Positions 1 to 56,375 are shown, numbered from the stretch's first letter. The stretch: DNA of 64,000 nt from Escherichia phage teqdroes (NC_054932.1), one strand, 5' to 3'. Program-made: numbers and translations. The notes: a model not told the origin generated them from the sequence alone.

Positions 1-1395
1 AAGAATAAAGATAATGAATTGCTTAAACGAGTATATCGTCTGACTTATTCTCGTGGGTTGCAGTATTATATCAAGAAATGGCCTAAATCTGGTATTGCTA
101 CCCAGAGTTTTGGAATGTTGACTCTTACCGATATGCTTGACTTCATTGAATTCACGTTAGCTACTCGGAAATTGACTGGAAATGCGGCAATTGAGGAATT
201 AACTGGATATATCACTGATGGTAAAAAAGATGATGTTGAAGTTTTGCGTCGAGTGATGATGCGAGACCTTGAATGTGGTGCTTCAGTATCTATTGCAAAC
301 AAAGTTTGGCCAGGTTTAATTCCTGAACAACCTCAAATGCTCGCAAGTTCTTATGATGAAAAAGGCATTAGTAAGAATATCAAATTTCCAGCCTTTGCAC
401 AATTAAAAGCAGATGGAGCTCGGTGTTTTGCTGAAGTTAGAGGTGATGAATTAGATGATGTCCGTCTTTTATCACGAGCTGGTAATGAATATCTAGGATT
501 AGATCTTCTTAAGGAAGAGTTAATCAAAATGACCGCTGAAGCCCGCCAGATTCATCCAGAAGGTGTGTTAATTGATGGCGAATTGGTATACCATGAGCAA
601 GTTAAAAAGGAGCCAGAAGGCCTAGATTTTCTTTTTGATGCTTATCCTGAAATTAGTAAAGCTAAAGAGTTTGCTGAAGTAGCTGAATCACGTACTACTT
701 CTAATGGAATCGCTAATAAATCTTTAAAGGGAACTATTTCAGAAAAAGAAGCTCAATGCATGAAGTTTCAGGTCTGGGATTATGTTCCGTTGGTAGAAAT
801 ATACGGTCTTCCAGCATTTCGTTTAAAATATGATGTACGTTTTTCTAAATTAGAACAAATGACATCAGGATATGATAAAGTAATTTTAATTGAAAACCAA
901 GTAGTAAATAACCTAGATGAAGCTAAGGTAATTTATAAAAAGTATATTGACCAAGGTCTTGAAGGTATTATTCTCAAAAATATCGATGGATTATGGGAAA
1001 ATGCTCGTTCAAAAAATCTCTATAAATTTAAAGAAGTAATTGATGTTGATTTAAAAATTGTAGGAATTTATCCTCACCGTAAAGACCCTACTAAAGCAGG
1101 TGGATTTATTCTTGAGTCAGAGTGTGGAAAAATTAAGGTAAATGCCGGTTCAGGCTTAAAAGATAAAGCCGGCGTAAAATCACATGAACTTGACCGTACT
1201 CGCATTATGGAAAACCAAAATTATTATATTGGAAAAATTCTAGAGTGCGAATGCAACGGTTGGTTAAAATCCGATGGCCGCACTGATTACGTTAAATTAT
1301 TTCTTCCGATTGCGATTCGTTTACGTGAAGATAAAACTAAAGCTAATACATTCGAAGATGTATTTGGTGATTTTCATGAGGTAACTGGTCTATGA
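1..1395 (+). CDS. 30: ATP-dependent DNA ligase, N-terminus cut by window edge
   Basis: Frame 1 reads KNKDNELLKRVYRL from base 1 with no start codon, so the gene begins upstream; adenylation-site motif KADGAR; sequence colinear with T4 gp30 as I recall it. Confidence 0.9.
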   Translation, partial: KNKDNELLKRVYRLTYSRGLQYYIKKWPKSGIATQSFGMLTLTDMLDFIEFTLATRKLTGNAAIEELTGYITDGKKDDVEVLRRVMMRDLECGASVSIANKVWPGLIPEQPQMLASSYDEKGISKNIKFPAFAQLKADGARCFAEVRGDELDDVRLLSRAGNEYLGLDLLKEELIKMTAEARQIHPEGVLIDGELVYHEQVKKEPEGLDFLFDAYPEISKAKEFAEVAESRTTSNGIANKSLKGTISEKEAQCMKFQVWDYVPLVEIYGLPAFRLKYDVRFSKLEQMTSGYDKVILIENQVVNNLDEAKVIYKKYIDQGLEGIILKNIDGLWENARSKNLYKFKEVIDVDLKIVGIYPHRKDPTKAGGFILESECGKIKVNAGSGLKDKAGVKSHELDRTRIMENQNYYIGKILECECNGWLKSDGRTDYVKLFLPIAIRLREDKTKANTFEDVFGDFHEVTGL

Positions 1396-1580
1396 AAGCT
1401 TACTTAGAAACAATTGTCGTGGCTCAAAAAGAAGGTGGAGATGTTTCTACTTCTGTATCACAAATCATGATTGAATTTATAGATGCATATGCTTATAATA
1501 AATTCACAGAAACTTTTGATGCTTATGAAAAAGGTCCAAAGTTTGAAATATATCGTACTCTCTTACCAATAGATTATTAA
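1392..1580 (+). CDS. hypothetical small protein (62 aa)
   Basis: ORF start overlaps ligase stop in an ATGA junction; followed by UUCG hairpin. Confidence 0.5.
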   Translation: MKAYLETIVVAQKEGGDVSTSVSQIMIEFIDAYAYNKFTETFDAYEKGPKFEIYRTLLPIDY

Positions 1581-1596
1581 AGGCCTTCGGGCCTTT
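1579..1596 (+). terminator. UUCG-tetraloop hairpin
   Basis: AAAGGCC-TTCG-GGCCTTT followed by A/T-rich run. Confidence 0.45.
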
Positions 1597-1601
1597 AATT
1601 T

Positions 1602-1609
1602 TATAAATA
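1602..1609 (+). promoter_or_regulatory. T4-type late promoter (TATAAATA) upstream of alt copy 1
   Basis: Exact TATAAATA about 20 nt upstream of ATG. Confidence 0.5.
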
Positions 1610-1629
1610 GAATAAACACTAGAGAGGCT

Positions 1630-3726
1630 ATGATGGAACTTATTACAGAATTATTTGACGAAGATACTACTCTTCCGATTACAAACTTAAATCCAAAGAA
1701 GAAAATACCGCAAATTTTTTCAGTTCGTGTTGATGATGCAATTGAACAACCAGGCTTTCGTTTATGCACCTATACATCTGGAGGTGATACTAATCGCGAT
1801 TTAAAGATGGGCGATAAAATGATGCATATTGTTCCTTTTACATTAACTGCCAAAGGTTCAATTGCTAAATTAAAAGGTCTCGGTCCAAGCCCAATTAATT
1901 ATATCAATTCAGTTTTTACTGTTGCAATGCAAACAATGCGTCAGTATAAAATTGATGCTTGTATGCTTCGTATTCTTAAGTCTAAAACCGCTGGTCAAGC
2001 TCGACAAATTCAAGTTATTGCTGATAGACTTATCCGTAGTCGTTCAGGTGGCAGATACGTCCTTCTTAAGGAACTCTGGGATTATGATAAAAAGTATGCA
2101 TATATTCTTATACATCGCAAAAATGTATCACTAGAAGACATTCCAGGAGTTCCGGAAATTAGTACCGAGCTCTTTACTAAAGTTGAATCGAAAGTCGGCG
2201 ATGTTTATATCAATAAAGATACTGGAGCTCAAGTAACTAAAAATGAGGCAATTGCAGCATCTATTGCACAAGAAAATGATAAACGTTCTGACCAAGCTGT
2301 AATCGTTAAAGTTAAAATTTCCCGTAGAGCAATTGCGCAAAGTCAATCATTGGAATCTTCTAGATTTGAAAGTGAATTATTCCAGAAGTATGAATCTACC
2401 GCAGCTAATTTCAATAAACCTGCTACCGCTCCTTTAATTCCCGAAGCAGAAGAAATGAAACTTGGAATTAATTCATTAGCTTCTAAAACTAAGGCAGCAA
2501 AAATTATTGCCGAAGGAACCGCAGATGAACTTCATTATGACTATAAATTCTTTTCAAAAAGTGAGGTTAATGAAGTTTCTGAAAAAATTAAAGATGTAAT
2601 TCTTAATGCGATTAAAAATGAACCGACTACTTCAATAAAATGTTTAGAGAAATACGCAGCAGCTGTTAATCAATTATTTGAAGAATATAAAGATAATTGG
2701 CTTGATAAACATAATAAAACCCGTAAAGGACAGCCAGATGAAGTCTGGGAAGAAATGACTAAAAATTCCTGGAACGCAGCAAAAACTAAATTCCTCAAAA
2801 GAATGATTTACAGCTTTTCTGGAATTGGTGCAGGTCCAATGATTGATATTACTATTGCCCGTGATGGTTCTAAATATACTCCATCACAAAAGCGCGGCAT
2901 TAGAGAGTATTGTGGTTCAGGATATACTGACATCAATAATCTTCTTTTGGGTCGTTACAATCCAGAACGATATGATGTAATGAGTGAAAAAGAAATTGAA
3001 TCTGCTATAAATAACTTAGATTCAGCTTTTGAAAACGGTGACCGTATACCAGAAGGCATTACAGTTTATCGTGCTCAAAGCATGACTGCTCCTATATACG
3101 AAGCACTAGTTAAAAATAAAGTGTTCTATTTCAGAAATTTTGTATCTACTTCTTTAACTCCTATCATTTTTGGACGTTTTGGAATTACGCATACTGGTAT
3201 TGGTCTTTTAGAACCAGAAGCTCGTAATGAATTGACAGTTGATAAAAATGAAGAAGGAATAACTATTAATCCAAGCGAAATAAGAGCGTATAAAGAAAAT
3301 CCTGAATACGTTAAAGTTCAAATAGGATGGGCAATTGATGGAGCTCATAAAGTTAATGTTGTATATCCAGGAAGTCTCGGAATAGCAACAGAAGCTGAAG
3401 TTATTCTACCGCGCGGATTGATGGTCAAAGTTAATAAAATAACTGATGCTTCTAATAATGACGGAACAACATCTAATAATACAAAACTCATTCAAGCTGA
3501 AGTTATGACCACAGAAGAACTCACCGAATCAGTAATCTATGACGGAGACCATTTAATGGAAACTGGTGAATTGGTTACAATGACAGGTGATATTGAAATA
3601 GAAGACAGAGTTGACTTTGCATCATTTGTTTCATCAAATGTTAAACAAAAAGTAGAATCATCTCTTGGAATTATTGCGTCTTGCATAGATATTGCAAACA
3701 TGCCTTACAAGTTCGTTCAAGGATAA
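1630..3726 (+). CDS. alt: Alt-type mono-ADP-ribosyltransferase, copy 1
   Basis: 698-aa ORF; N-terminus MELITELFDE; R-S-E ART motifs (YRAQ, NFVSTSL, EAEVILPRG); position next to gene 30 as in T4. Confidence 0.8.
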   Translation: MMELITELFDEDTTLPITNLNPKKKIPQIFSVRVDDAIEQPGFRLCTYTSGGDTNRDLKMGDKMMHIVPFTLTAKGSIAKLKGLGPSPINYINSVFTVAMQTMRQYKIDACMLRILKSKTAGQARQIQVIADRLIRSRSGGRYVLLKELWDYDKKYAYILIHRKNVSLEDIPGVPEISTELFTKVESKVGDVYINKDTGAQVTKNEAIAASIAQENDKRSDQAVIVKVKISRRAIAQSQSLESSRFESELFQKYESTAANFNKPATAPLIPEAEEMKLGINSLASKTKAAKIIAEGTADELHYDYKFFSKSEVNEVSEKIKDVILNAIKNEPTTSIKCLEKYAAAVNQLFEEYKDNWLDKHNKTRKGQPDEVWEEMTKNSWNAAKTKFLKRMIYSFSGIGAGPMIDITIARDGSKYTPSQKRGIREYCGSGYTDINNLLLGRYNPERYDVMSEKEIESAINNLDSAFENGDRIPEGITVYRAQSMTAPIYEALVKNKVFYFRNFVSTSLTPIIFGRFGITHTGIGLLEPEARNELTVDKNEEGITINPSEIRAYKENPEYVKVQIGWAIDGAHKVNVVYPGSLGIATEAEVILPRGLMVKVNKITDASNNDGTTSNNTKLIQAEVMTTEELTESVIYDGDHLMETGELVTMTGDIEIEDRVDFASFVSSNVKQKVESSLGIIASCIDIANMPYKFVQG

Positions 3727-3729
3727 ATC

Positions 3730-5787
3730 ATGGAACTTATTACAGAATTATTTGACGGCGCTTCGGCGCCGGTTGTTAACTTAAATCCTAAGCATAAAAT
3801 ACCTCAAATTTTTGCTATTCAAGCCGGCGAAGAAAGTGTGCTTCCTGGATTTAGATTTTGTACATACACCTCTGGCGGTGATACAAATAAAAACGTTAAG
3901 CCGGGCGATAAAATGATGCATATCGTAATGATAGGTGTCAACGAGAAATTATCGCTGGTTAAGCTTAGAAACTTGGGTGGAAATCCAATTGGCGTCATTA
4001 ATGCTGTTTTTGATACTGCTCTTCAAACAATGAAACAGTATAAAATCGACGCATGCCTATTCCGCGTACTAAAGAGTAAAACAAATGGCGCAGCTCGTCA
4101 AATGCAAGTTATTGCTGACCGTTTAGTACGTACTAAAGGAGCAGGTCGATATGTTCTCTTAAAGGAAATCTGGGACTATGATAAGAAATATGCATATATT
4201 ATGGTTTACCGTAAAAATGCCAATTTAGAAGACATTCCAGGTGTACCTCCTATTTCAACTGAGTTATTCACAAAAGTTGAATCAAAGGTTGGTGATGTTT
4301 ATGTAGACGTTAAAACAGGTAATGCTGTTCCTAAAGCTGTTGCTGTTGCTGCTTCTATTGCTTTAGAAAATGATAAGCGCACGGATCAAGCTGTTATTCA
4401 GAAAACTAAAATTAGTCGTCGATTAGCAGCACAAGCTCAATATTCTACTGTTGATGCTTCACTTCAGGGTGATAGCTTCGCCGCTAAGAAATATCAAGAG
4501 TTTGAATCTAAAGTTCCGGTATATAAAGCAGAAGGACCAATGAACTCCGGGGTTATCCAGATTGGTTCAAACTTCGGCAAAGGAGCTATCGGTGGTATGA
4601 GAAGTGCTTCTCGTTTTAAATCTAGTGATTATGAACTAGAAAGCTTCCGAAATCATATTGCATTAGCCCATGCACGTTTACGTGATCCATCTATCAAGTT
4701 GCAGAGCGATATAACATATCAAGGTTCTCAAGAATATTTAAAGAATAAAGAATTCTTTGATTATAAAACTGATAAAATTTTAAGCGATCTTGCTGACATT
4801 AATATTTCTAATAGCTTTGATGTTATTAAGAAAATTATTAATGATTTAGTTAAAGGTTCTAAAGCTACGCCAGATGAAAAGACAGCTATTATTCAATTTG
4901 TCATGAATGGCATTTATAAATTGATTAATGAATCTGCTGCCCAGGCATATGAATACGCAAGCACCGAAGTAACTCCAAAAGGATTAACCCAAGCTGAATC
5001 TGATGTAATTGAAGATTATTGTGCAGATTCATATGTTGAAATGAACTCGTTCCTTTTGGGTAAACCAGATTCTACCCGTGAAGAATATATGGAACGAGCT
5101 ATTAAGCACATCGAGACGTTGGATTCTGCCTTTGCCAAAGGATCAGTTCTTCCTCCAGGAACTACACTTTACCGTGGACAAGAAGTTACCTTTAAAACTT
5201 TGCGTCATAACATTGAAAACAAAATGTTCTATTTCAAGAACTTCGTATCGACATCACTTAAACCAAATATCTTCGGTGAGCATGGTAAAAACTATATGGC
5301 TCTAGATGATTCCGGCGCAGTATTTTCTGGCGAAGGAGAAGGTTCCGTTGATGCAGAAGATTTAATGCATATGGGTAGTCATTCTACATATGCCATTGAA
5401 GATGCTGAAACTAGCGTGGGTATGGTAATTAAAGGAGCTGAGCGAATCAAAGTTATCGTTCCAGGTCATTTATCAGGATTTCCATCAGAAGCTGAAGTTA
5501 TTCTACCGCGTGGAATTTTACTGAAGATTAATAAAGTAAGTACGTACTTTATGAAAGAAACTGCTTATAACAAGTATCTAATCGAAGGTACAATCGTTCC
5601 TCCTTCTGAACAATTAGAAGAATCAGTATATGATGGCGACCATTTAATGGAAACTGGTGAAGTTCGTCCAATGGCTGGATTTAATCAATTCCTTGTAGAA
5701 GAATCAAAAGAAGAGGAAAACGAAGTTTCTCAAATCTTGGCTTCTTTGGTTAACATCAACGGAATGTCTAAAAAGTTCAAGATGTAG
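3730..5787 (+). CDS. Alt-type mono-ADP-ribosyltransferase, copy 2 (paralog)
   Basis: 685-aa ORF 3 nt after copy 1; same N-terminal 240 aa and same ART motifs (YRGQ, NFVSTSL, EAEVILPRG), divergent centre. Confidence 0.75.
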   Translation: MELITELFDGASAPVVNLNPKHKIPQIFAIQAGEESVLPGFRFCTYTSGGDTNKNVKPGDKMMHIVMIGVNEKLSLVKLRNLGGNPIGVINAVFDTALQTMKQYKIDACLFRVLKSKTNGAARQMQVIADRLVRTKGAGRYVLLKEIWDYDKKYAYIMVYRKNANLEDIPGVPPISTELFTKVESKVGDVYVDVKTGNAVPKAVAVAASIALENDKRTDQAVIQKTKISRRLAAQAQYSTVDASLQGDSFAAKKYQEFESKVPVYKAEGPMNSGVIQIGSNFGKGAIGGMRSASRFKSSDYELESFRNHIALAHARLRDPSIKLQSDITYQGSQEYLKNKEFFDYKTDKILSDLADINISNSFDVIKKIINDLVKGSKATPDEKTAIIQFVMNGIYKLINESAAQAYEYASTEVTPKGLTQAESDVIEDYCADSYVEMNSFLLGKPDSTREEYMERAIKHIETLDSAFAKGSVLPPGTTLYRGQEVTFKTLRHNIENKMFYFKNFVSTSLKPNIFGEHGKNYMALDDSGAVFSGEGEGSVDAEDLMHMGSHSTYAIEDAETSVGMVIKGAERIKVIVPGHLSGFPSEAEVILPRGILLKINKVSTYFMKETAYNKYLIEGTIVPPSEQLEESVYDGDHLMETGEVRPMAGFNQFLVEESKEEENEVSQILASLVNINGMSKKFKM

Positions 5788-5816
5788 TTTACAAGTCCCT
5801 CGTGTTGTGTTATAGT
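5788..5816 (+). promoter_or_regulatory. T4 early promoter (GTTTAC, 17 bp, TATAGT)
   Basis: -35 GTTTAC at 5788, -10 at 5811. Confidence 0.5.
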
Positions 5817-5847
5817 AGTCTTACTGACATAACATGAGGAACACAAA

Positions 5848-6138
5848 ATGAAATCTTCTTTGCGCTTTTTAGGTCAAGAACTTGTAGTTGAAGGCGTTAT
5901 TCCTGCTGATAATGCTTTTAATGAAGCAGTTTATGATGAATTTATCAAAATTTTTGGAACAGATAAAAAGTTCGGAATTTTTCCTTCTGAAAATTTTTCA
6001 AAGCCAGAACAAACTGAAAGTATTTTCCAAGGTGTAGTAACAGGTAAATTCGAGTCAGAAGCTCCGGTAAAAATTGAAGTTTATATTGAAGACAGTTTAG
6101 TTGCTTCAGTTTCTGCTTTCATTTCATTCCGTAAATAA
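5848..6138 (+). CDS. hypothetical protein (96 aa)
   Basis: ORF preceded by early-promoter-like GTTTAC/TATAGT and RBS, followed by GNRA hairpin. Confidence 0.5.
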   Translation: MKSSLRFLGQELVVEGVIPADNAFNEAVYDEFIKIFGTDKKFGIFPSENFSKPEQTESIFQGVVTGKFESEAPVKIEVYIEDSLVASVSAFISFRK

Positions 6139-6144
6139 AAATAT

Positions 6145-6162
6145 GGGGACCGAAAGGTCCCC
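6145..6162. terminator. bidirectional hairpin terminator between convergent 96-aa ORF and gene 54
   Basis: GGGGACC-GAAA-GGTCCCC. Confidence 0.6.
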
Positions 6163-6166
6163 ATTG

Positions 6167-7132
6167 TTATATTGCTCCTAATATTTTACTCTGCGAATTA
6201 ACAATTCCTGTCATAGTATTAATGTTTGAAATGCTTCCAGCAGTCCCTCCTAATCTACTAAGTCGTGAAAGCGAATTAGATAGCCCAGTAACACCTCCAC
6301 TATTTCCGAGAACGCTTTGAATACCATTTATAGCAGCAGATTCAAGCCATTCAAGCGCAGCTTGCCTATCAACTGCTCCAGCCTGCATCACTCTGTACGC
6401 AAAAGTAACATCAAATGTAGTTATTTGGTTATCTCCATCATATGATAACTCAGGAGCGCTCACTGATATTGGAATGCATCCTGTGAACATCACCGCAGTA
6501 TGAGGTAATCCATTGCGAGAATGAAGATTAACCTGAATATCTGCCTCGACATCTTGTGGCAAAGCGCGTAATCCAGTTACTGGGTCTTGAACAGCGTTAA
6601 CCCAGTCTTGCATTGCACGATAGTTACATGCTTCTGAATCCATTCTAAATGAAATAACCAAAGGGTCTAATTCTCTCCCAGTTATACGAATATTAGGAGA
6701 ATTATAGTTCCAGTCAGTTTCATAGGATAATCTATTCTCTGGCATTTTTACTGAATATATCATCAATCCAGATGAGTTATATGCCATATTAAAGAAGTCA
6801 ATTAAATATGTACCAACTGTAAATGAGCCTAATAAACTTTGAACTGTACGTTGACTCATGGCACCAATAAGATATTTACTAACCCCTGATTTTCTTATCA
6901 GTTTTTGTGTGCCAGCAGTAATTAGCGTGGTAATTCCCTGATTAATATCACCTTGAGTCAATCCTAACCAATCTGAATTTAGGCCCAAGTTATTATAAGA
7001 AAAGTTGCTAATTGAACTTATCAACGAAGAGCTTTTAGTTGATGGAGTTGTCGCAAAAACGCAGCTAAACATATTATTACGTTGGAAATCTGCGTTTATT
7101 GCTTGATTATTAAATTCCTCTAAAGAATACAT
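6167..7132 (-). CDS. 54: baseplate tail-tube initiator
   Basis: 321-aa ORF; position and length match T4 gp54. Confidence 0.85.
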   Translation of the reverse strand: MYSLEEFNNQAINADFQRNNMFSCVFATTPSTKSSSLISSISNFSYNNLGLNSDWLGLTQGDINQGITTLITAGTQKLIRKSGVSKYLIGAMSQRTVQSLLGSFTVGTYLIDFFNMAYNSSGLMIYSVKMPENRLSYETDWNYNSPNIRITGRELDPLVISFRMDSEACNYRAMQDWVNAVQDPVTGLRALPQDVEADIQVNLHSRNGLPHTAVMFTGCIPISVSAPELSYDGDNQITTFDVTFAYRVMQAGAVDRQAALEWLESAAINGIQSVLGNSGGVTGLSNSLSRLSRLGGTAGSISNINTMTGIVNSQSKILGAI

Positions 7133-8226
7133 TAAAAAGTCCCCGCATATAAAGAAGCACGGTTTAACGTGATAATTTCTCTCATAGTAATCTCAAGAGT
7201 AAATGTACTAGGGAGGTTTGGAGCAATAGCTAATCCGTTAAAGTTACCATTAGGTGTTTTATCAAATCTGATACTCTGGATTTGACATGGACCGAATATT
7301 TCCGTTTTTCCATCAAACTTAGATGTTGCACCAAAGTTTTTCACCATCCAAACTGTCGGGTTTGAAACTACTAGAACGTTAGTTAAACTCGATGTCATTT
7401 TCTCAAATAGTGTTTTATTTTTAGCTGCGTCTTCCGGAGATAAAGGTTCAATTAACGTAGAACGATACCAATCATCTAAATATCCCTTTATTTCAGCAGC
7501 ATATTGAGATTTACCCGTTTCACCATAAGAAAAATAGTTAAAATATTGATAGATATTAATAATAGCCATTAAATCTTCTGTTGAACGTGGAGTCAAATCC
7601 CATGTAAACACTTTAGTTCTATTTTCAGCACCACCATACATACTTCTGGCTGTCGTATAAATCTGTTCATTATTATCAGCCATTATACCTTGTGTTATAC
7701 TTTCCAGCGCCCCAAATACTGCGGTTGAAGCAATATTACTTAGCACACCAGTAGCAGTACCTCCGCCTCTACTGATGAGGCTTTCTTGAACATCATTAAA
7801 TCTATGTGATGATGTATCAACATCAGATTTAGATCTCGGTAAAAGAATATTTGCGATAGGAGATTTACTTATTGTTCCTGAATTATTATTTGATATTAAT
7901 CCATTTGATAGTTTTGATACTGTACTACTAATAGTGTTTCTAGCTGTACGTAAAATACTCGAAGATGAAGAAGAGTAGTTAGATCTCATCGATCTAAGAC
8001 TTCCAGAATCCCTAGATGACATATTGTATGCAGTAAATAATAATCCATTCTTATATAGATCTGTTACCTGGAAGTCCCCTGTAGTGTCATTACCACTAGC
8101 ACGCCCAGTTGGAAACTGGGCAGTGTATGTTTTAGTTCCTACTTCTGATTTAGTACTCTGTCCGGCTGAAATTTTCTCACCAGACTTTTTAATTAAATCA
8201 GCAGTTATTTCTTTAACAATTGCCAT
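7132..8226 (-). CDS. 48: baseplate tail-tube cap
   Basis: 364-aa ORF; length and order match T4 gp48. Confidence 0.85.
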   Translation of the reverse strand: MAIVKEITADLIKKSGEKISAGQSTKSEVGTKTYTAQFPTGRASGNDTTGDFQVTDLYKNGLLFTAYNMSSRDSGSLRSMRSNYSSSSSSILRTARNTISSTVSKLSNGLISNNNSGTISKSPIANILLPRSKSDVDTSSHRFNDVQESLISRGGGTATGVLSNIASTAVFGALESITQGIMADNNEQIYTTARSMYGGAENRTKVFTWDLTPRSTEDLMAIINIYQYFNYFSYGETGKSQYAAEIKGYLDDWYRSTLIEPLSPEDAAKNKTLFEKMTSSLTNVLVVSNPTVWMVKNFGATSKFDGKTEIFGPCQIQSIRFDKTPNGNFNGLAIAPNLPSTFTLEITMREIITLNRASLYAGTF

Positions 8227-54778: not shown

Positions 54779-54851
54779 TGGGAATTAGCCAAGTTGGTAA
54801 GGCACTGGATTTTGATTCCAGGATGCAAAGGTTCGAGTCCTTTATTCCCAG
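54779..54851 (+). tRNA. tRNA-Gln (anticodon TTG)
   Basis: Cloverleaf by eye: acceptor TGGGAAT/ATTCCCA, T-loop TTCGAGT, anticodon loop TTTTGAT. Confidence 0.8.
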
Positions 54852-54852
54852 C

Positions 54853-54939
54853 GCGAGAATGGTCAAATTGGTAAAGGCACAGCACTTAAAATGCTGCGGA
54901 ATGATTTCCTTGTGGGTTCGAGTCCCACTTCTCGCACCA
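54853..54939 (+). tRNA. tRNA-Leu (anticodon TAA)
   Basis: Acceptor GCGAGAA/TTCTCGC, long variable arm, T-loop TTCGAGT, CCA encoded. Confidence 0.8.
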
Positions 54940-54944
54940 AATTT

Positions 54945-55018
<74 letters not shown>

Positions 55019-55022
55019 ATTT

Positions 55023-55673
55023 ATGACTCGTCGTGAGACGCTCAGTTCTTTATTAGGGACTGATATGCATTTTTATCTTTATAAAATAACAAATAAAATT
55101 AATAATAAAATTTATATTGGTGTGCATTCTACCGAAAATTTAGATGATGGATATATGGGTTCTGGTAAATTATTAAAAAGAGCCCAAGACAAGTATGGTA
55201 TAGAAAATTTCTCTAAAGAAATATTAGAGTATTTTGATGATAAAGAATCTATGCTTGAAGCCGAGAAAAATATTGTCACAGAAGAGTTTTTAAATAGACC
55301 AGATGTGTATAATTTAAAACTTGGCGGAGAAGGTGGATGGGACCATATAAATAATTATCCTATGACAGATCAGCAACGCGAATTAATTTCATTGGGTGTT
55401 AAAAAGGCACATTCTAACGGAAAATTAAAAGGATGGTCTTCAAATGGATTAATGAAGAATGGCTTTGCTGGTAAAAATCATTCTCAAGAAGCTAAACGTA
55501 AAATAGCAAAAGCAAACGAAGCAAAAGTTTCTGCGGATGAAAGAAAAAGAAGAATAGAAATTTCTAAATTATATGATTTTTCTAAGCGTGGTGAATTATC
55601 TAAATATGCTAAGCATATTGGCGTAAGTCATACTCAAGCAAAAAGAATTCTAAATCAAATTAACAATATATAA
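55023..55673 (+). CDS. segB: GIY-YIG homing endonuclease
   Basis: GIY..YIG motif (FYLYKITNKINNKIYIGVHS); inserted in tRNA cluster as T4 segB; start may be ATG 55065. Confidence 0.8.
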   Translation: MTRRETLSSLLGTDMHFYLYKITNKINNKIYIGVHSTENLDDGYMGSGKLLKRAQDKYGIENFSKEILEYFDDKESMLEAEKNIVTEEFLNRPDVYNLKLGGEGGWDHINNYPMTDQQRELISLGVKKAHSNGKLKGWSSNGLMKNGFAGKNHSQEAKRKIAKANEAKVSADERKRRIEISKLYDFSKRGELSKYAKHIGVSHTQAKRILNQINNI

Positions 55674-55680
55674 ATATTTG

Positions 55681-55770
55681 GAGGCGTGGCAGAGTGGTTT
55701 AATGCACCGGTCTTGAAAACCGGCAGTCGCTCCGGCGACTCATAGGTTCAAATCCTATCGCCTCCGCCAG
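55681..55770 (+). tRNA. tRNA-Ser (anticodon TGA)
   Basis: Acceptor GGAGGCG/CGCCTCC, long variable arm, T-loop TTCAAAT, CCA. Confidence 0.8.
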
Positions 55771-55776
55771 TTTTTG

Positions 55777-55852
55777 CTGATTTAGCTCAGTAGGTAGAGC
55801 ACCTCACTTGTAATGAGGACGTCGGCGGTTCGATTCCGTCAATCAGCACCAA
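55777..55852 (+). tRNA. tRNA-Thr (anticodon TGT)
   Basis: Acceptor GCTGATT/AATCAGC, anticodon loop CTTGTAA, T-loop TTCGATT, CCA. Confidence 0.8.
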
Positions 55853-55853
55853 G

Positions 55854-55928
55854 GCCCTGTAGCTGGAAGGTTCAAGCAAGCGACTCATAATCGCCAGATG
55901 GTGGTTCAATTCCACCCAGGGCCACCAA
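55854..55928 (+). tRNA. tRNA-Ile (anticodon CAT; Ile2-type, could be Met)
   Basis: Acceptor GGCCCTG/CAGGGCC, anticodon loop CTCATAA, T-loop TTCAATT, CCA. Confidence 0.7.
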
Positions 55929-55940
55929 ATTATGAATTAG

Positions 55941-56027
55941 GGGAGTTATCCCGTAGAGGTAGCGGTGTGGACTGTAAATTCATTGTCATTGCGACTCGGG
56001 TGGTTCGACTCCACCACTCCCCACCAA
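55941..56027 (+). tRNA. tRNA-Tyr (anticodon GTA), class II
   Basis: Acceptor GGGGAGT/ACTCCCC, loop CTGTAAA, long variable arm resembling E. coli tRNA-Tyr, T-loop TTCGACT; anticodon stem has two G-U pairs. Confidence 0.6.
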
Positions 56028-56031
56028 TTTG

Positions 56032-56106
56032 GATGTGTAGCTCAATGGTAGAGCGATCGCCTGTTAAGCGATTGGTTATAGGTTCGAATCCTATCACGTC
56101 CGCCAA
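56032..56106 (+). tRNA. tRNA-Asn (anticodon GTT)
   Basis: Acceptor GGATGTG/CACGTCC (one G-U), loop CTGTTAA, T-loop TTCGAAT, CCA. Confidence 0.7.
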
Positions 56107-56219
56107 ATTTGTGACAACTGTCACATTAATATCTACTTGACGCGATTATAGGGGTTGAACTGATCACTCTTCTCTTAATTTCGTGTGAAGACATCTTGAT
56201 TGTTGGAGTAGGTATTAAT

Positions 56220-56295
56220 GTGGCCGTAGTTCAGTTGGTAGAACTCGAGATTGTGATTCTCGTAGTCATGGGTTCGACTCCCATCGGTCACCCCA
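56220..56295 (+). tRNA. tRNA-His (anticodon GTG)
   Basis: Acceptor GTGGCCG/CGGTCAC, loop TTGTGAT, T-loop TTCGACT, CCA; no encoded G-1. Confidence 0.65.
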
Positions 56296-56299
56296 ATTA

Positions 56300-56375
56300 C
56301 GGGGCATAGCTCAGAAGGAAGAGCAAGGACCTTCTAAGTCCTAGGTCGTAGGTTCGATCCCTACTGCCTCGACCA
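56300..56375 (+). tRNA. tRNA-Arg (anticodon TCT)
   Basis: Acceptor CGGGGCA/TGCCTCG, loop CTTCTAA, T-loop TTCGATC, CCA. Confidence 0.75.

Follow-up and report, generated by a model that had tools for sequence, protein, structure and literature searches.

The genome of Escherichia phage teqdroes (NC_054932.1), a T4-like phage (Tequatrovirus), carries next to its DNA ligase gene two long open reading frames (ORFs) that both resemble alt, the T4 gene for an ADP-ribosyltransferase (ART) injected at infection, and the question raised by this locus is how the two came to stand side by side and whether their products act on the same host proteins. The window analyzed here is a stretch of 64,000 nucleotides (nt) from this genome, and all coordinates are positions in it. 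The two adjoining ORFs lie on the same strand at 1630-3726 (698 amino acids, aa) and 3730-5787 (685 aa) with a spacer of only 3 nt (TAA-ATC-ATG), as a sequence-only reading of the window had described; that reading had also stated that reference T4 has only one full-length alt, which the T4 record confirms. Our analysis suggests that the locus likely consists of the canonical Alt and an old, deeply diverged paralog, Alt2, both of which would be packaged, processed by the prohead protease gp21 and injected as arginine ADP-ribosyltransferases with different targets. Judged from indirect evidence, two injected ARTs with different targets would be the most plausible functional reading. The two genes, with copy 1 in 697-aa numbering, are divided as follows.

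1633..3726, + strand: copy 1, canonical alt (Alt, AltA lineage), 697 aa (or 698 aa from 1630)
1633-1650, + strand: copy 1 propeptide MELITE
up to 2346, + strand: copy 1 N-domain
2347-2868, + strand: copy 1 helical middle
2869-3528, + strand: copy 1 ART domain, with R480, S505-T-S507 and E587-A-E589
aa 630-632, + strand: copy 1 LTE cleavage motif
3529-3723, + strand: copy 1 C-propeptide
2380..3510, + strand: allelic replacement in copy 1 when compared with T4 alt, spanning the middle and ART domains (60-nt sliding identity, protein segments)
3730..5787, + strand: copy 2, Alt2 (alt.-2, AltB lineage), 685 aa
3730-3747, + strand: copy 2 propeptide MELITE
up to 4443, + strand: copy 2 N-domain
4444-4983, + strand: copy 2 helical middle
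4984-5622, + strand: copy 2 ART domain, with R482, S507-T-S509 and E587-A-E589
aa 629-631, + strand: copy 2 LEE motif
5623-5784, + strand: copy 2 C-propeptide
4078..5767, + strand: part of copy 2 that is absent from T4 (blastn, junction sequences)

By their sequences, both copies qualify as Alt-family R-S-E ADP-ribosyltransferase genes with intact motifs. Pfam PF03496 (ADPrib_exo_Tox) matched copy 1 with an E value of 1.8e-37 (129 bits) and copy 2 with 6.3e-20 (71.8 bits; cut-off 23.4), and PHROG 802, "Alt-like RNA polymerase ADP-ribosyltransferase", matched both at full length (copy 1, E 2e-272 over 1-696; copy 2, 8.6e-256 over 1-685), while an NCBIfam scan returned no match for either. The observation that the R-S-E motifs are whole in both was borne out by sequence and alignment, and neither copy has lost the catalytic Arg or Glu: copy 1 has YR481AQ, S506-T-S508 and E588-A-E590 (here in 698-aa numbering) and copy 2 has YR482GQ, S507-T-S509 and E587-A-E589. 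R, STS and ExE are unchanged throughout 15-17 diverse aligned homologs and in every aligned sequence of the Alt2/AltB lineage. In T4 Alt, the E577A variant is catalytically dead (PMC11404850); as the double start ATGATG is found in T4 too, numbering from its first ATG places E577 at the second Glu of the T4 E-M-E. NAD-dependent ADP-ribosylation, with RNA polymerase alpha among the substrates, has been reported for T4 Alt, and from the ExE motif and this precedent we infer that both enzymes are arginine specific.

AlphaFold models (predicted local distance difference test scores of 75.5 for copy 1 and 76.5 for copy 2) gave one architecture in both copies: an alpha/beta N-domain (~15-240), an all-helical middle (to ~410-420), an ART domain preceded by helices of its own, and a low-confidence C-tail. 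The ART fold predicted for both matches those of Vis, C3, VIP2, iota-like toxins and CDTa. No solved Alt structure was found by sequence search, which matched only distant ART toxins, and the N-domain profile had no match in the PDB and, with the Pfam threshold relaxed to E <= 10, none that was credible there. The fold of the N-domain may be GNAT-like.

We then asked how far the copies differ. BLASTP aligned them at 41% identity (E 6e-158). The N-terminal ~240 aa, which the sequence-only reading had called near-identical, are in fact 67% identical over 238 aa (50-80% in windows of 30 residues; 68% at the DNA level). That reading had rightly seen that the centre is almost wholly different, as the stretch from aa ~239 to 412/418 is only 12-13% identical and essentially unalignable, but the divergence is not confined to it, and the copies share 35% of residues in the ART domain and 43% in the last 55-65 aa (C-propeptide). 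The C-terminal block described as common to both is present, as SVIYDGDHLMETGE in copy 1 and SVYDGDHLMETGE in copy 2. The notion of swapped central segments had to be given up, because the copies have diverged in the ART and C-terminal parts as well and JS98 holds an ortholog of each.

To place this divergence in time, segment trees and identities were obtained for the window, T4 Alt, JS98 and the single-copy Alts of four further genera (S16, X20, PS49, VAC36). For the middle, the ART domain and the C-terminus, Alt2 falls with JS98 AltB in a deep separate clade, and the other clade holds copy 1, T4 Alt, JS98 AltA and all single-copy Alts. Across these three segments, copy 2 is 45%, 58% and 60% identical to AltB, and copy 1 is 34%, 60% and 55% identical to AltA. 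Because the segments group by paralog across genera, the duplication is older than the split of these genera.

These ortholog clades mean that the C-terminal two thirds of the proteins diverged long ago and that the part with the discordant history is the N-domain, which clusters by genome. Copies 1 and 2 of the window (1633-2346 and 3730-4443) are 67-68% identical in this domain and AltA and AltB of the JS98 locus L008 (4284-5030 and 6372-7120) 65%, whereas orthologs in different genera share only 42-46%. JS98 accordingly differs from the window in having another type of N-domain, 42-46% identical to that of the window and nearer to those of X20 and VAC36 than to its window orthologs, and in having the propeptide motif L-N-E rather than I-T-E. 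The match within a genome could result either from gene conversion or repeated domain replacement, or from constraint by the same lineage-specific partner. The pattern suggests gene conversion or domain replacement confined to the head-targeting part, and it is a possibility that the Alt N-domain is a swappable head-core docking module that gene conversion keeps matched in each genome. Among the Alts of S16, X20, PS49, VAC36 and JS98, the last propeptide residues are L-N-E or L-V-E and VF comes next, where the window has I-T-E and then LF; a gp21-type L/I-x-E motif is therefore conserved family-wide, with changing surrounding residues.

The novelty of the arrangement did not survive comparison with other genomes: among T4-type phages, both full-length copies in this order are already on record. 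Two alt genes at this locus are the rule in Tequatrovirus phages, annotated as their normal state and already known. A megablast search with window positions 1-7200 retrieved 572 phage records, 391 of which cover at least 80% of the query, the closest DNA match being vB_Eco_TB37 (98.8%). By tblastn, 400 records hold the middle of Alt2 at 90% identity or more (398 of them at 95% or more); the N-domain of Alt2 is present at 95% or more in 395, and another 128 match it at only 60-80%, as expected from Alt alone. A full-length second copy is thus found in about 395-400 phage records, and set against the 128 this amounts to roughly three quarters of Tequatrovirus records.

Individual relatives show the same picture. 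In Bas37 (Escherichia phage KarlGJung, MZ501089), the gene order, the lengths of 698 and 685 aa and the 3-nt spacing are those of the window; Bas37_0033, "ADP-ribosyltransferase Alt", is 99.0% identical to copy 1 and Bas37_0032, "Alt2", 99.1% identical to copy 2, so that the names Alt and Alt2 are already in use in records of BASEL phages. RB32 (NC_008515; GenBank DQ904452) has alt and alt.-2, the latter annotated as "similar to alt", in the order 30 - alt.1 - alt - alt.-2 - alt.-3 - 54 with 97.2% DNA identity over 7.2 kb, and the pair is present as in RB32 in T6, RB10, RB18 and RB33. JS98 (Dhakavirus, EF469154) has tandem altA and altB between alt.1 and alt.-3. DalCa and Paracelsus/Bas36 differ from the window in pairing its type of Alt2 with the T4-type alt allele. 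Paralogs of alt in T4, RB49 and 44RR were listed by Nolan et al. 2006, the only literature on alt.-1/alt.-2 that we found, and our search found no paper on Alt2 as a phage ADP-ribosyltransferase or on its role or targets. The two-gene arrangement therefore adds nothing new, being present in hundreds of annotated genomes and in print since 2006.

That T4 appears to have a single gene is the outcome of a loss. A blastn comparison of the T4 locus with the window aligned ~3730-4077 and then resumed at 5768, so that ~1.69 kb of Alt2 is gone, and the joint of the deletion lies in a microhomology of 9-10 nt, CTAAA(G/A)AGT. The remnant is divided by a frameshift into alt.-1 and alt.-2, of which alt.-1 corresponds to Alt2 residues 1-54 with one substitution; according to the T4 record, these two stem from a duplicated first part of alt. 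The combinations of copy 1 allele and Alt2 state were verified through examples of each. Both alleles of copy 1 are found beside this deletion (loci L006 and L007), and both are likewise found beside a full Alt2 (the window and Bas37; DalCa and Bas36). A scan of IMG/VR with copy 2 gave 5 loci, which show that every combination of allele and deletion exists and are too few for statistics. Laboratory T4 is the exception, and about three quarters of its close relatives encode, and maybe inject, a pair of Alt-family enzymes. What has been concluded from T4 on "the" injected ART covers only half of the natural repertoire.

Several lines of evidence point to Alt2 as a working gene. Both genes are under strong purifying selection: the ratio of nonsynonymous to synonymous substitution rates (dN/dS) is 0.073 overall for copy 1, and for Alt2, which has no stop codons in the five genomes compared, it is 0.036 overall, with 0.009 in the N-domain, 0.054 in the middle and 0.038 in the ART domain. 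A pseudogene or decaying gene is excluded for copy 2 by its dN/dS of 0.036 and the lack of stop codons. In transposon insertion data for Bas37 on E. coli K-12, Alt2 received insertions at 116 of 164 TA sites and was scored "Intermediate" (mean count 44.5), compared with 164 of 179 sites for Alt, which was non-essential (mean count 203.6), as was alt.-3 (HIDEN-SEQ preprint supplement). These values hint that the loss of Alt2 costs Bas37 more than the loss of Alt, even on K-12; the main text of the preprint does not discuss Alt2. This depletion of insertions, together with the reading frame, the dN/dS values and the conservation, is what suggests that the gene works.

The case for packaging comes from the comparison with T4. 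T4 Alt is a prohead-core protein, present in ~40 copies per head and ejected into the host at infection (PMC9026906). The prohead protease gp21 cleaves after L/I-x-E, and in T4 Alt its sites have been mapped to ITE-6 and LTE-619, with removal of 63 C-terminal residues and a mature protein that lacks the six residues MELITE (PMC5694885). Both copies of the window begin with MELITE, and an L-x-E motif aligns with T4 LTE-619 in each (LTE in copy 1, LEE in copy 2), directly followed by SV(I)YDGDHLMETGE, so that the C-terminal block noted in the sequence-only reading would mark where the C-terminal propeptide begins. What both paralogs have in common, namely the ITE propeptide, the N-domain (the segment under the strongest constraint, with dN/dS about 0.01) and L-x-E with SV(I)YDGDHLMETGE, matches the head-processing features of T4 Alt. 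Because of this match to features of head incorporation and processing, Alt2 is presumably packaged and trimmed like Alt, which leads to a testable prediction, namely that Alt2 is in the head and is cleaved at both ends. The "particle-associated" list of fD1, a phage with two copies (PMC8309999), also takes in proteins that are clearly non-structural, DNA ligase among them, and would be weak evidence on this point; the virion proteome of a Klebsiella T4-like phage contains one abundant ART (189/191 spectra), which has no bearing on Alt2.

Other explanations of the pair have to be weighed against two packaged enzymes. A fairly recent tandem duplication in which the central module alone was exchanged, leaving enzymes that are otherwise similar, would fit the fact that the N-terminal 238 aa (67%) and the blocks FVSTSL, EAEVILPRG and YDGDHLMETGE are far better kept than the centre (12%). 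We consider this history extremely improbable and rejected it on identities and trees compared segment by segment: divergence extends to the ART domain (35%) and the C-propeptide (43%), the DNA of the N-domains is only 68% identical, JS98 has orthologs for each copy in the middle, ART and C-terminal segments, and the single-copy Alts of other genera all cluster with copy 1.

It is also conceivable, if unlikely, that Alt2 serves mainly as a structural or scaffolding part of the head core, or else is a redundant copy in decay, and that its enzyme activity is irrelevant. Alt has been described as a head-core protein besides being an enzyme, most of the Alt2 gene is lost in T4 and in about a quarter of Tequatrovirus records, and the fitness cost of insertions on laboratory K-12 could mean a role in assembly; decay is countered by the intact reading frame in five genomes and by the uniformity of the middle domain (398 of 400 records at least 95% identical), and a purely structural role by the invariance of R, STS and ExE in all aligned Alt2/AltB-lineage sequences and by a dN/dS of 0.038 in the ART domain, which would be unexpected if packaging were all that mattered. 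Nor does much speak for an Alt2 that stays unpackaged and acts late inside the producing cell while Alt alone is injected. Alt2 is a late gene by position and we found no virion evidence for it, but a protein of this kind would hardly be expected to keep the six-residue propeptide MELITE, an extremely constrained N-domain (dN/dS 0.009), and an L-x-E site with a conserved C-propeptide, features tied in T4 Alt to head incorporation and gp21; moreover, its N-domain follows the type of genome and not the lineage of the paralog, as if fitted to the same head core. We therefore hold this course of events to be very unlikely.

For the preferred reading, that of two packaged and injected enzymes, the following sequence of events can be proposed. 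Both genes would be transcribed late from the motif TATAAATA at 1602, copy 2 by read-through from copy 1. The common N-terminal propeptide and N-domain would bring both proteins into the prohead core, where gp21 would cut each protein behind the N-terminal I-T-E and again behind L-x-E, some 55-65 residues before the C-terminus, and both would then be injected together with the phage DNA. In the host cell, each enzyme, an R-S-E type with the E-x-E motif, would carry out arginine-specific mono-ADP-ribosylation. Alt and Alt2 would most likely modify different host proteins, because their middle (12%) and ART domains (35%) differ greatly.

Several points weigh against this scheme. Co-transcription is assumed, as copy 2 has no late promoter directly upstream. 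The presence of Alt2 in the virion, its cleavage by gp21 and its enzyme activity are predicted from sequence features, and arginine specificity is argued from the ExE motif and the analogy with T4 Alt. T4 and ~128 other records are without full Alt2 and these phages are viable, so Alt2 must be dispensable at least in some hosts. Finally, insertions in Alt2 could be scarce in Bas37 because truncated products do harm, and not because a useful activity is lost. A further step, that Alt2 is a second injected effector with substrates of its own, possibly directed against host defences, which has gone unstudied because laboratory T4 deleted the gene, is put forward tentatively. It would agree with the distance of the helical and ART domains of Alt2 from those of Alt, which is as great as that between Alt and its counterparts in unrelated genera, with the strong purifying selection and with the fitness cost of disrupting Alt2, but not Alt, in Bas37.

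The expression signals and neighbouring genes bear on how the two copies may be transcribed.

19-1395, + strand: 3' part of DNA ligase gene 30
1392-1580, + strand: alt.1
1579..1596, + strand: terminator-like hairpin AAAGGCC-TTCG-GGCCTTT, 3' of alt.1 and just before the alt promoter (sequence reading)
1602..1609, + strand: T4 late-promoter motif TATAAATA, 21-24 nt 5' of the copy 1 start (exact motif)
3006..3013, + strand: second exact TATAAATA motif, in the ART-coding part of copy 1, 717 nt 5' of copy 2
5788..5816, + strand: promoter-like site of sigma-70/early type (TTTACA-17-TATAGT, TG-extended) in the gap that separates copy 2 from alt.-3 (consensus scan only, 10/12 matches)
5848..6138, + strand: alt.-3, 96 aa, DUF5498 (Pfam PF17602, E 5.4e-64; synteny in T4, RB32 and JS98)
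beyond alt.-3, - strand: baseplate genes 54, 48 and 29

Both copies occupy a conserved position, with gene 30 and alt.1 on one side and alt.-3 and gene 54 on the other. The motif TATAAATA, known as the T4 late promoter, is kept in T4 at the site equivalent to 1602, and the hairpin at 1579-1596 has the same sequence in T4, with a rho-independent terminator marked at the equivalent site in the DalCa record. Copy 1 probably starts at its second ATG (1633), giving 697 aa, since a GAGG Shine-Dalgarno sequence (1624-1627) lies 5 nt from that ATG; the ATGATG double start is common to copy 1 and T4 alt, and from the second ATG (1633 in the window) both begin with MELITE. Copy 2 has a Shine-Dalgarno sequence, AAGGA, 6 nt 5' of its ATG. 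No late-promoter motif was found immediately 5' of the copy 2 start, the nearest TATAAATA being that at 3006 within copy 1, which could serve as an extra late promoter giving Alt2 a late transcript of its own.

On the far side of copy 2, a bidirectional hairpin terminator lies downstream of alt.-3 (6143-6164). C-terminal extension mutants of alt.-3 allow T4 to escape the CmdTAC defence (PMC11618068). Elsewhere in the window, 10 tRNA genes were called at 54779-56375 (Gln, Leu, Gly, Ser, Thr, Met/Ile-CAT, Tyr, Asn, His and Arg). T4 has 8 tRNAs (Gln, Leu, Gly, Pro, Ser, Thr, Ile and Arg); compared with this set, Tyr, Asn and His are additional, no tRNA-Pro was called, and there is a gap at 55019-55679.

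A true cassette replacement does exist at this locus, only it lies between the copy 1 alleles of the window and T4. In sliding windows of 60 nt, copy 1 and T4 alt are 97-100% identical at the DNA level up to ~2375 and again from ~3510, and 35-80% identical over the ~1.1 kb between. T4 Alt (NP_049811, 682 aa) is the positional ortholog of copy 1, with which it shares the late promoter, the propeptide and the gp21 motifs as well as 99% identity in the N-domain and 100% in the C-propeptide, but it is only 33% identical in the middle and 66% in the ART domain, nearly the distance to another genus. The window-type middle of copy 1 (at least 90% identity) is found in 317 records and the T4-type in 174. 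The variation has functional consequences: T4 Alt aids evasion of Mokosh type I, and Bas37 Alt cannot substitute for it (preprint 10.1101/2025.11.20.689424); the Bas37 allele is that of copy 1 in the window. Two divergent alleles with near-identical flanks that are not interchangeable with respect to Mokosh suggest that the middle and ART domains are a fast-changing surface of interaction with the host.

Among known systems outside these phages, the closest likeness is to the R-S-E bacterial toxins Vis, C3, VIP2, iota Ia and CDTa, which share the catalytic fold and the Arg, STS and ExE motifs with both copies. Assignment as the A component of a binary toxin (VIP2, iota Ia or CDTa type) was considered and rejected, as the two tandem ART-fold domains were not found in the Alt proteins; the N-terminal domain of VIP2, Ia and CDTa is an inactive, ART-like adaptor, which Alt lacks. 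The toxins are secreted or rely on a binary B component for delivery, and they are only 14-25% identical to the Alt proteins. The Alt proteins, for their part, combine a phage-specific N-domain, a helical middle and two propeptides removed by a protease.

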